Below are positions 6,893-9,084 of a DNA stretch of 64,000 nt, in pieces (the first letter of the stretch is position 1; every line of letters begins with the position of its first letter). The position numbers and the translations under genes were made by a program. Where the stretch lies: positions 5,328 to 69,327 of the forward strand of contig JACQSK010000007.1 of the NCBI GenBank assembly GCA_016205975.1. The letters run 5' to 3'. Source of the DNA: Candidatus Uhrbacteria bacterium. GTDB taxonomy: Bacteria > Patescibacteriota > Patescibacteriia > UBA9934 > GWF2-40-263. Under the pieces are notes generated by a model. That model had not been told where the DNA came from. It saw only the letters and a list, made by a program, of their open reading frames with translations, and did not search any database.

Positions 6893-6930
6893 CTGGGAAA
6901 AGAAAAATCCCGCTGGGAGGTGAGCGGGAT
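6893..6930 (-). terminator. intrinsic terminator downstream of the IS110-like gene
   Basis: Hairpin atcccgct-gggaggtg-agcgggat (6907..6930) followed on the minus strand by ttttcttttcc. Confidence 0.5.
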
Positions 6931-7092
6931 CGTTGGTCTAGGCCATGCGCCTGCGGGCGGCCTCGAGCTTCTGGCGGCGAGCGAGCTCGCTCCACTGGTC
7001 GGCGAGCCACTCGACGAACTTCGTCACCGTGCGCCACAGGGCCATCTTGTGGATGTGTCCGTCGGTGTAGCGCTTCTTGCCTTCCACCTCGA

Positions 7093-8445
7093 TCACCTCG
7101 GGGTGGGCGACGTGGAGCTTCGCCTTGTACTCGAGCAGGAGGCGGCCCCAGTGTGTGCGGTCGCTCTGCCGGTTGAACTGGTCCGCGAGCAGATACAGCG
7201 CCTGCCTCGCGTCCGGGTGCCAGTTGGCGGGCTGGCCTGCACGGCGGCGGGGGAACTCCCATCCTCCATGACGGCTACGCCACAGAACATCTTGAGCTTG
7301 GCCTGGGTGGCCTTGCGCGCGCGGTGCCGGAGCTTGGAGCGCTCCTCATGGCACGCGACGGCACGCTCGAGCAGGGCGGCCTGCTCCGGTCGCCTGTTCT
7401 TCGCGCACCAGGAGGCGACGCGTTGCAGGGTCTGGAACTCGCTGTTCCCCAGCTGGACGAAGCGCTTGAGTTCCTGGAACCTCGCCTCGCGCTCCAGCCG
7501 GGTGGACTCCTCGTAGAGGCTGTCCATCCGCGCCTGGTTGGGTTCGACCATGAACCGCTCGATCCCGCCGATCGCGGAGATGAGCCTTCCCGCGAGCGCG
7601 GGGCCGATGCCCGAGACATCCTCCAAGATGTGCTGCCACACCTGGGTGTTCTTCACGGCGCGGTCGAGCTCCTTGAACCGCGCGGCCTCCTCTTCCTGGA
7701 GCGCCAGGTAGATGCGGTCGTTGGCCTTGAACTCGTTGAACGCGCGTTCGATGTCGAGCTCGGCGAAGTCCTGCTCGGCGCACAGCACCTGGCCCACGAG
7801 GGCTCGGTGCAGGCGCTGTTCGCAGGCGATACGACCCTTCATGGCGTCGATGCGCAGAGCCTGGCACTCGCGCACCCAGATGATGCGCCGTGTGTTCACC
7901 GTCACCTCGTGGAAGAGGCTGGGCTTGTCGCGCGCGAGCTGCGCCAACAGCTTGGCGTCCTCGTCCTTCTCGCCGTGGCGTTCCCGCTTGAGCTCGAAGG
8001 GCGGAAGGCGCAGGACCTTGGCACTCACGCGCTCACCCTGCTTGGACAGGGCGAAGGCGAGCCGGTCTCCCGAGCCGCCGAGCGACATCCCGACGACGTC
8101 ACCGCGCTGGAGGCCGTCGAAGGTGATGGGAACCTTGGTGGCGACCTGGGTCTTGCCGTCCTGCTCGCGCAGGTGCACCTGGTTGAGCTTCTCGACGTCC
8201 TCGGTCTTCTTCACCGTACGCCACTTCACGTGACGTGGGTTGAAGTCTGCGAGGCTGTCTTCGGGCGCGATGTCACGCCAGGCGATGGGGAAGCGACCGC
8301 GCACCCAGTCGAGCTCGGCGTTGTCGTCCTCCAGCTCGTAGGTGTCCTCACGCCCGCCGTCGATGACGGTCATCTGGGTGGGACGCGCTTCTCCTTCCTT
8401 GGTCTTCTTGACCCGGTGTCGGACACCGATGAACCTCTTGTTCAC
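7093..8445 (-). CDS. IS110-family-like transposase/recombinase (RuvC/DEDD-like segment plus helix-hairpin-helix), divergent
   Basis: VVGMSLGGSGDRLAFAL resembles a RuvC/YqgF/DEDD N-terminal motif. LEDVSGIGPALAGRLISAIGGIERF closely resembles the HhH of IS110 Transposase_20 (LxxIPGIGxxTAxxLLAEIGDxxRF). The canonical Ser motif is not recognisable. The last ~60 aa are low-complexity, so a frameshift is possible. Sits in a GC-rich block between secE and gyrB. Confidence 0.4.
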   Translation of the reverse strand: MNKRFIGVRHRVKKTKEGEARPTQMTVIDGGREDTYELEDDNAELDWVRGRFPIAWRDIAPEDSLADFNPRHVKWRTVKKTEDVEKLNQVHLREQDGKTQVATKVPITFDGLQRGDVVGMSLGGSGDRLAFALSKQGERVSAKVLRLPPFELKRERHGEKDEDAKLLAQLARDKPSLFHEVTVNTRRIIWVRECQALRIDAMKGRIACEQRLHRALVGQVLCAEQDFAELDIERAFNEFKANDRIYLALQEEEAARFKELDRAVKNTQVWQHILEDVSGIGPALAGRLISAIGGIERFMVEPNQARMDSLYEESTRLEREARFQELKRFVQLGNSEFQTLQRVASWCAKNRRPEQAALLERAVACHEERSKLRHRARKATQAKLKMFCGVAVMEDGSSPAAVQASPPTGTRTRGRRCICSRTSSTGRATAHTGAASCSSTRRSSTSPTPR

Positions 8446-8587
8446 TTCTCCCTCTGGTGAATGTCACCCAACGGGGAAACCCTGTTTCGGGCAACGCGCC
8501 ACCCTAGCAGTTTGGTCGACTATGTCAATGGGCAAAGTAAAACCCCCGTTACTCTCGCAAGCTTCGGGAGCAGGAGCCATGCAACTG

Positions 8588-9010
8588 CTCCGACGTCGTT
8601 GACATCGTCATGTGCGCACAGCGGGAATCGGGCAGCCACACGGTCGTCTCTCGACAGCGTATTGTTCGCCCGATGGGGGAGAGTGACATTCGTCCATTCG
8701 TCTTTCGACAAGGCCGACAGAGTCACTCGGGGAGTCGTGCACGCTGGTCCTGGTCTCTCGACAGTATCAATATCGCACGACGATGGCTCGACATTCATCT
8801 GATCGTCTTTCGACGGGTGGCGAGTCGTCGAGCTGAGAATCGGGCACTCCATAGTCCGTCTTTCGACAGCCGACCATGCGCCCGATGGGGAGGGTGACAC
8901 GCGAGCAATCATCTTTCGACAATCTCCCATTCGTCACTCGGGGAGCCGAGCAGACCCTCGGTCGTCTCTCAACACGACCTCCTGTGCTCGGCGAATCTTT
9001 ACTACCCCAA
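8588..9010. repeat. degenerate higher-order tandem repeat (about two copies of ~212 bp, each built of four ~53-bp subunits with core TCGTCTYTCGACA)
   Basis: Core motif found at 8644, 8698, 8751, 8803, 8855, 8909 and 8959 (period 52-54 bp). Blocks gaatcgggca and cccgatgggga recur 211-212 bp apart. Not CRISPR-like. Confidence 0.6.
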
Positions 9011-9024
9011 ATCAAAGACGGGGT
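8998..9024 (-). terminator. intrinsic terminator downstream of gyrB
   Basis: On the minus strand, hairpin ggggcttgacccc followed by gtctttgattt. Confidence 0.45.
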
Positions 9025-9084
9025 CAAGCCCCGCCTTGTGTGAACTACGCGGGGGCAAGCCCTCGCGGTTTACGCTTCGCTTGC

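Follow-up and report, generated by a model that had tools for sequence, protein, structure and literature searches.

A probable stem-loop TIGR-Tas system with a frameshifted tasR gene between gyrB and secE of Candidatus Uhrbacteria

TIGR-Tas systems were first described in 2025-2026, and their proteins are evolutionary relatives of IS110 through a shared Nop-like RNA-binding domain (PMC12045711). Among the described members, TaTasR (9MTY; Faure et al., Science 2025, PMC12045711) is a compact protein of 331 aa with an active RuvC domain (D11) that cuts both DNA strands (PMC12045711), and is guided by a dual-repeat array of uniform 36-nt guide units in which edge and loop repeats are conserved. 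CsTasR, whose host belongs to the candidate phyla radiation (CPR), has been solved by cryo-electron microscopy (cryo-EM) on double-stranded DNA; it does not cleave, and acts by RNA-guided transcriptional repression (Xu et al., bioRxiv 10.64898/2026.09.09.750476). Here, we describe a locus composed of a tasR gene and a tandem array of guide RNA units, lying between gyrB and secE in a 64-kb stretch of Candidatus Uhrbacteria DNA (hereafter the window, the whole length of which was covered by the window-wide scans). We are highly confident that this locus is a chromosomal stem-loop TIGR-Tas system of the CPR clade of TasR proteins with a dead RuvC domain. It carries every sequence-level feature of such a system, i.e. 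a Tas protein, the unit layout, the association of the array with the gene on the same strand, and a substituted RuvC, and it adds a member to this kind of system, not a new kind.

A sequence-only reading of this DNA had pointed to a 450-aa open reading frame (ORF) on the minus strand between secE and gyrB and had taken it for a divergent IS110-like gene with a helix-hairpin-helix (HhH) domain. The ORF is indeed present (7093-8445), and after repair of the frameshift described below its product counts 502 aa; its full-length homologues have 498-506 aa. The closest homologue, 80% identical, is also from Ca. Uhrbacteria, and hundreds more occur across Patescibacteria, some of them labelled 'transposase'; shorter members of the family (about 420 aa) are without an insertion of about 70 aa after the HhH. 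When the family profile was compared with the PDB, a single solved structure was matched, namely 9MTY (TIGR-TasR, E = 3.7e-13), with the GxxxNW...R motif included in the match. An AlphaFold2 model of the protein was obtained with a predicted local distance difference test (pLDDT) score of 90.1 and a predicted template modelling (pTM) score of 0.82, and was used to search solved structures by Foldseek, which returned 9MTY (E = 2e-10; template modelling score 0.59-0.60, target-normalised) and TasH (21KL, E = 6e-4), nothing significant beyond these two, and no IS110 structure among the matches listed. The structural check that had been proposed for the IS110 assignment therefore led to TasR and TasH as the nearest solved structures.

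The predicted architecture of the tasR product is a RuvC-like domain, a coiled coil and a Nop-like RNA-binding domain. What had been read as a 120-aa N-terminal extension is instead the beta1-beta3 portion of the RuvC-like fold together with a stretch of about 80 aa whose insertion is specific to the clade: strands are modelled at residues 5-9, 23-29, 32-38 and 117-121, and the inserted region spans residues 40-110 approximately. In all the homologues, conservation of this N-terminal region begins at residue 4, and nowhere else is the family as strongly conserved (RFIGIRHRxKKTxEGEARPTQ). The window protein is 46% identical over residues 4-488 to a 547-aa protein of Ca. Staskawiczbacteria (L004), which has R8 and V126 and which we identify as CsTasR because its length and both residues agree with those published (bioRxiv 10.64898/2026.09.09.750476). 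It is also 40% identical to the protein encoded at locus L045, on the Ca. Buchananbacteria contig that PMC12045711 names to exemplify TasR proteins whose RuvC is inactivated. Residues R9 and S121 of the window protein align with R8 and V126 of CsTasR, and R9 is invariant in the family; the window TasR is thus predicted from its residues to be nuclease-dead, with a RuvC-like domain devoid of catalytic residues. There is no mention of Uhrbacteria or of these accessions in the text supplements of the 2025 paper (PMC12045711).

The 640-nt stretch between tasR and gyrB (8446-9084) is not an empty spacer, but contains tandem structured RNA units that had been missed by the sequence-only reading. The stretch is repetitive at spacings of 53, 106 and 212 nt, and the motif GTCGARAGAC is found in it five times and nowhere else in the window, where 0.5 occurrences would be expected by chance. 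Seven units of 48 nt (U1-U7, Table 1) make up the array, each of them composed of a 7-bp terminal stem, a C-GA (box C), a 9-nt spacer A and a UG (box D), followed by a UC-GARA-GA hairpin (GNRA), a further C-GA, a 9-nt spacer B, and a U-G with the closing stem. The linkers between units measure 4-6 nt, and in most cases read UCCCC. All seven pairs of the terminal stem are formed in six of the units and six in U2; there are five distinct stem sequences, U2 sharing its stem with U6 and U3 with U7, but not their spacers. Over the seven units, 98.6% of the cells are paired, with compensatory changes at six of the seven terminal-stem pairs, and neither shuffles nor slid registers approached the pairing of the true register. 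The seven units were used to build a covariance model, which retrieved U1-U7 from the window with E values from 1e-11 to 2e-10 and, beyond these, only a degenerate eighth unit, in which the terminal stem includes two G-U pairs and the central hairpin is altered. No known family was found by Rfam, whether searched permissively on 5.5-12 kb or at gathering thresholds across the whole window.

The same architecture recurs beside the homologues of tasR. When the covariance model was run on 79 Patescibacteria homologue loci, it gave 250 matches at E <= 1, of which 248 were on the tasR strand, and the matched units clustered upstream as well as downstream of the gene. A stricter set (E <= 0.02), comprising 144 units from the window and 41 loci, was aligned: the skeleton CGA-N9-UG...CGA-N9-UG is invariant throughout, 98.5% of the cells are paired, and 139 units have variable segments of 9 + 9 nt with a near-uniform composition. 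Hardly any spacers recur between loci, a single unit being common to L006 and L033. We do not claim this hypervariability as a sign of active spacer acquisition, because synonymous sites between the window and its relative L001 are near saturation, and neutral drift is sufficient to account for the divergence. U6 (8681-8728) and its orthologue in L001 (L001:5472-5519) have identical stems, hairpin and linkers, while only 3 of the 18 spacer positions match. The array of L001 is split into two sub-arrays by a gene for an RtcB-like RNA ligase (419 aa, with the motifs GGGNHFIE and HSGSRNIG; L001:3859-5118); RtcB was considered as a conserved partner of the system and rejected, as it is present in L001 alone among the loci retrieved.

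The layout of the units agrees with that of the published stem-loop tigRNA, including the extra loop hairpin described for the CPR clade. The closest resemblance is to CsTasR, which is likewise from a CPR host, has the aforementioned 46% identity over nearly the full length, and shares with the window protein an N-terminal RuvC-like fold into which about 80 aa are inserted. In both proteins, the first catalytic position holds an Arg, a coiled coil is present, the Nop-like domain has a large insertion, and a C-terminal Y/H processing loop is lacking. The tigRNAs of CsTasR also have terminal stems and two spacers with a small hairpin between them, and its arrays flank the gene on the same strand. 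In contrast, the second catalytic position is V126 in CsTasR and S121 in the window; CsTasR is 547 aa long against about 502 aa for the product of the window gene, which is frameshifted; the window array is located only upstream of tasR, and there is no CUU motif at the bases of its stems; and spacers of 10 nt, 9 of which pair, are reported for CsTasR against strictly 9 nt here. TaTasR is the best match of the window protein among solved structures in both sequence and structure, and has in common with it the RuvC, coiled-coil and Nop-like architecture and tandem-spacer guides flanked by box C/D nucleotides, but it is only 19-20% identical, and its active nuclease, its small size and its dual-repeat array set it apart. 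A wider likeness is to Nop5 (Nop56/58) of the archaeal and eukaryotic box C/D small nucleolar ribonucleoproteins (snoRNPs), which have a Nop domain, a coiled-coil dimer, an inactive RuvC-like N-terminal domain, and guide RNAs with two guide segments, each beside a box C/D element. These particles, however, act on RNA targets, have fibrillarin and L7Ae as partners, and use kink-turn box C/D motifs (RUGAUGA, CUGA), none of which is seen at the window locus.

By homology with CsTasR and PateTasR, we infer the following mechanism. The array upstream of tasR would be transcribed on the tasR strand, and cleavage in the linkers would produce tigRNAs of about 48 nt, each of which could be held by a TasR dimer through the nucleotides of box C (CGA) and box D (UG). 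The two 9-nt spacers would pair with opposite strands, recognizing the adjacent 9-bp halves of an 18-bp DNA site. The dead RuvC-like domain would merely act as a scaffold for DNA binding, so that the bound DNA would be left uncut and transcription would be blocked sterically, as is the case for CsTasR.

The tasR gene of the window is interrupted by a 1-nt deletion, whose position (Table 1) was established by nucleotide alignment with the relatives L001, L007 and L033. Past the deletion, the 450-aa ORF reads out of frame until a TGA at 7093; the low-complexity tail described by the sequence-only reading is real, and is this out-of-frame read-through. The phase of the GC content at third codon positions (GC3) changes near 7260, beyond which the other frame carries well-conserved sequence (FPRRRAGQPANWHPDARQALYLLADQF...) down to the TAG stop codon, and tblastn splits tasR into two segments in different frames. 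The identical frameshifted ORF was found in assemblies from five separate sequencing runs, which match the window at 100% identity over 2-5.5 kb, and, being reproduced in five independent assemblies, the deletion is a property of the organism rather than an assembly error. It costs the protein its last 105 residues or so, with which the Nop-like domain loses its conserved C-terminal part, including R400, W409, R414, Q415, the HIH motif and W471. The tas reading frame is therefore not intact at this locus, a fact which concerns the function of the system and not its family membership. Judging from the broken frame, the system has most likely been freshly inactivated, and the array, which is still intact, suggests that the loss is recent. 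The relatives carry tasR in one frame, with the exception of L006 (Ca. Uhrbacteria nzgw366), where the frameshift is located at a different site (L006:6566-6606), inside the conserved RIDAMKGRIACEQ motif; thus, tasR is broken in two of the six syntenic Uhrbacteria, the window included. The array of L006 is the longest, with at least 12 units, despite its broken tasR.

The order gyrB, array, tasR, secE, nusG, rplK, rplA is found in five other Uhrbacteria (L001, L002, L006, L007 and L033), and in a more distant genome (L070) tasR is inverted between the same flanks. Nucleotide alignments are collinear, with identities of 70-80% for tasR and 78-83% for the flanks. Because it occupies the same site between gyrB and secE, collinear with its flanks, in five relatives, we conclude that tasR is vertically inherited; the sequence-only reading had set a vertically inherited core gene, present at this position in all relatives, against its own proposal, and the presence of the gene in five related genomes goes part of the way there. 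Replacement of tasR by horizontal transfer at a hot spot had been suspected, since TasR is 57-80% identical where NusG is 97-98% identical, but was ruled out because the nucleotide identity of tasR tracks that of the flanks. On the other hand, an ancestral insertion between the two genes is possible, because gyrB and secE are directly adjacent in L045.

The base composition of the locus is peculiar. As the sequence-only reading had stated, the block is richer in GC than its surroundings and full of overlapping spurious ORFs: it includes the richest 1.5-kb stretch in the window (GC 0.666 vs. a mean of 0.583), a value attained by just 0.16% of the 1.5-kb windows, and the ORF listing displays the spurious frames. 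The GC3 of tasR is about 0.90 in the window and 0.82-0.90 over the window and every in-frame syntenic relative (L001, L002, L007, L033), whereas gyrB, nusG, rplK and rplA range over 0.54-0.69 in the relatives and 0.60-0.79 in the window. Since the excess is common to the in-frame syntenic relatives, it is long-standing and is no mark of recent transfer. What had been proposed as the insertion of a mobile element is thus a gene in single copy in the window, syntenic and collinear in five relatives, whose GC excess they share.

A further reading of these data, which we consider unlikely but still worth stating, is that the system has been kept at one housekeeping site across a Uhrbacteria clade, with a constant scaffold on which the spacers are replaced and with recurrent loss of the system, as would befit a role in conflict. 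It draws on the identical scaffolds and stems of orthologous units with completely different spacers, on the GC3 excess, and on the frameshifts in two of six lineages. If true, it would document the evolution of a TIGR array in a cellular host, and would point to a role against mobile elements rather than in host regulation.

Some observations weigh against the assignment to TIGR-Tas, or against the activity expected from it. The box C of PateTasR has been published as CUU, while it is CGA in the window array, and neither the linkers nor the stem bases show an evident CUU processing motif. A search for DNA targets of the spacer pairs, covering both arrangements of the half-sites (A|rcB and rcB|A) with gaps of 0-2 nt, gave in the 64-kb window three matches at three mismatches, against 2.35 expected, and none better; likewise, the spacers of 139 units matched 0.97 Mb of related loci at chance level. 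The lasting GC3 excess of a vertically inherited gene is a compositional anomaly for which we have no explanation. Finally, the frameshifted gene may yield no protein. This last point would be met if the system were functional despite the deletion, either because ribosomes slip by -1 and produce full-length TasR or because the two parts work together as a split protein. The array is wholly intact and its stems are perfect, the downstream frame retains its coding GC3 signal and all of the conserved motifs, the deletion is stable across five samples, and slippage on the C run, for example by re-pairing of tRNA-Pro on the C5 run UCC-CCC-G (7253-7249), would give DG-SSP-RRRAG, equal in length to the DG-KFP-RRRAG of the homologues. 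However, neither a canonical X-XXY-YYZ slippery heptamer nor an evident stimulatory structure was found there, the relatives have tasR in a single frame, and decay is favoured over programmed recoding because the frameshift of L006 sits at an unrelated site; continued function by either route is in our opinion quite improbable.

The assignment to IS110 was a sensible starting point, since IS110 and Tas proteins have the Nop-like domain in common, and it has weak sequence similarity behind it. The locus would in that case be a divergent insertion sequence, with an RNA-guided DEDD/Ser recombinase and its bridge RNA, inserted between gyrB and secE. Distant homology to IS110/IS621 (PF01548 + PF02371; 8WT6) is evident in the HhH/Nop-like domain and the coiled coil, the N-terminal domain has an RNase H-like fold in both, and both use a guide RNA with paired half-guides addressing the two DNA strands. 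On its HhH segment, the window protein matches DEDD_Tnp_IS110 (E = 0.009, 16.2 bits against a cut-off of 29), HHH_5 (E = 0.011) and Transposase_20 (E = 0.045, 14.6 bits against 21.3); 8-9 of 15 family members match the DEDD_Tnp_IS110/Transposase_20 models, the lowest E values being 5e-7 and 4.7e-8; some homologues are named 'transposase' in databases, and the GC content is above that of the flanks. Nevertheless, all the Pfam scores of the window protein lie below the gathering thresholds, so that of the IS110-like HhH gene of the sequence-only reading only a weak similarity stands. An invariant Arg takes the first DEDD position, and family members have D, G, K or E in place of the IS110 catalytic Ser, which that reading had rightly found lacking. 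The partner RNA is made of 7-8 equivalent tandem guide units in place of the single two-loop bridge RNA of IS110, with its target and donor loops, and Rfam found none. To this may be added the absence of IS110 structures from the Foldseek matches listed, the single copy of tasR in the window and its identical, flank-collinear position in five relatives, and a GC excess that, being shared by them, speaks against an insertion. An IS110 element is, in view of all this, extremely unlikely; the suspicion that the gene was inactive, frameshifted or a distinct relative was nonetheless sound, and all three apply. We also see next to no probability that the dead-RuvC TasR of CPR bacteria guides work on RNA, such as the modification or processing of rRNA or tRNA, as box C/D snoRNPs do, rather than acting on DNA. 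It is true that this clade has been speculated to be an intermediate toward box C/D snoRNPs (PMC12045711) and that the locus is chromosomal, vertically inherited and adjacent to translation genes. Yet CsTasR, at 46% identity, binds double-stranded DNA in its cryo-EM structure and represses transcription; the spacers are almost all unique between relatives, which is unexpected for guides to conserved rRNA; a gene for a methyltransferase partner is missing from the neighbourhood, and there is no rRNA or tRNA in the window.

The assignment to stem-loop TIGR-Tas corrects an annotation trap, in that CPR tasR genes resemble degenerate IS110 elements and carry the database labels 'transposase' or 'hypothetical protein'. 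In addition, it provides a cleanly delimited natural stem-loop array of 7 + 1 units, with CGA as box C, UG as box D and 9 + 9-nt spacers, and a covariance model derived from it, with which hundreds of units were retrieved from Patescibacteria. The fixed chromosomal position offers a rare setting in which orthologous arrays can be compared, and bears on the origin of the spacers and on their natural targets.

Table 1. Positions of the array, tasR and neighbouring features in the window.
Feature	Position	Strand	Remarks
rplA, rplK, nusG, secE	4739-6797	minus	
tasR intrinsic terminator	6906-6931	minus	9-pair stem, then TTTCTTTT
tasR	6938-8445	minus	GTG start at 8445, TAG stop at 6940-6938; about 502 aa after frame repair
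1-nt deletion in tasR	7256-7257	minus	between 7257 and 7256; codon is AAG, AGG or CTC in relatives; frame shifted
Promoter-like TTGACA-N17-TAGGGT upstream of tasR (putative)	8499-8527	minus	read by eye
Degenerate eighth unit	8576-8622	minus	cmsearch 12.7 bits, E = 0.87, and sequence reading; weak evidence
Stem-loop TIGR array, seven 48-nt tigRNA units	8627-8992	minus	same strand as tasR
U7	8674-8627	minus	
U6	8728-8681	minus	
U5	8781-8734	minus	
U4	8833-8786	minus	
U3	8886-8839	minus	
U2	8939-8892	minus	
U1	8992-8945	minus	
Array leader and gyrB 3' region	8993-9084	minus	hairpins (fold z = -2.1); stretch conserved in relatives
gyrB	9085 to about 11100	minus	

The block had been described as bounded by intrinsic terminators on both sides. 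The terminator downstream of tasR was confirmed, while on the gyrB side there is only a hairpin region, which was not flagged by the scan. That leader region is 91% identical over 46 nt to the corresponding one of L007, and is conserved in L001 too. The promoter-like sequence before tasR has a similar counterpart, TTGACA-N17-TAGTTT, at the equivalent place in L001. A further promoter-like sequence, also read by eye, is located directly ahead of U1 (8998-9026, minus strand) and shares with the one before tasR the pattern TTGAC[C/A]-N17-TAG; the consensus scan flagged neither of them. Between the tasR terminator and secE lies a sigma-70-like promoter, TTGCCA-N17-TATGAT (6841-6869, minus strand; 10/12 matches), which suggests that secE and nusG may be transcribed from it independently of tasR.

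In many bacteria, tRNA-Trp or rpmG is found upstream of secE. ARAGORN detected no tRNA genes in the window (1-64000), so the expected tRNA-Trp is absent from this position. In L001 (1527-2779) and L033 (3178-4430), gyrB contains an insertion of about 1.25 kb at a position matching 9787/9788 of the window; it has no counterpart in the window gyrB, and may be an intein.

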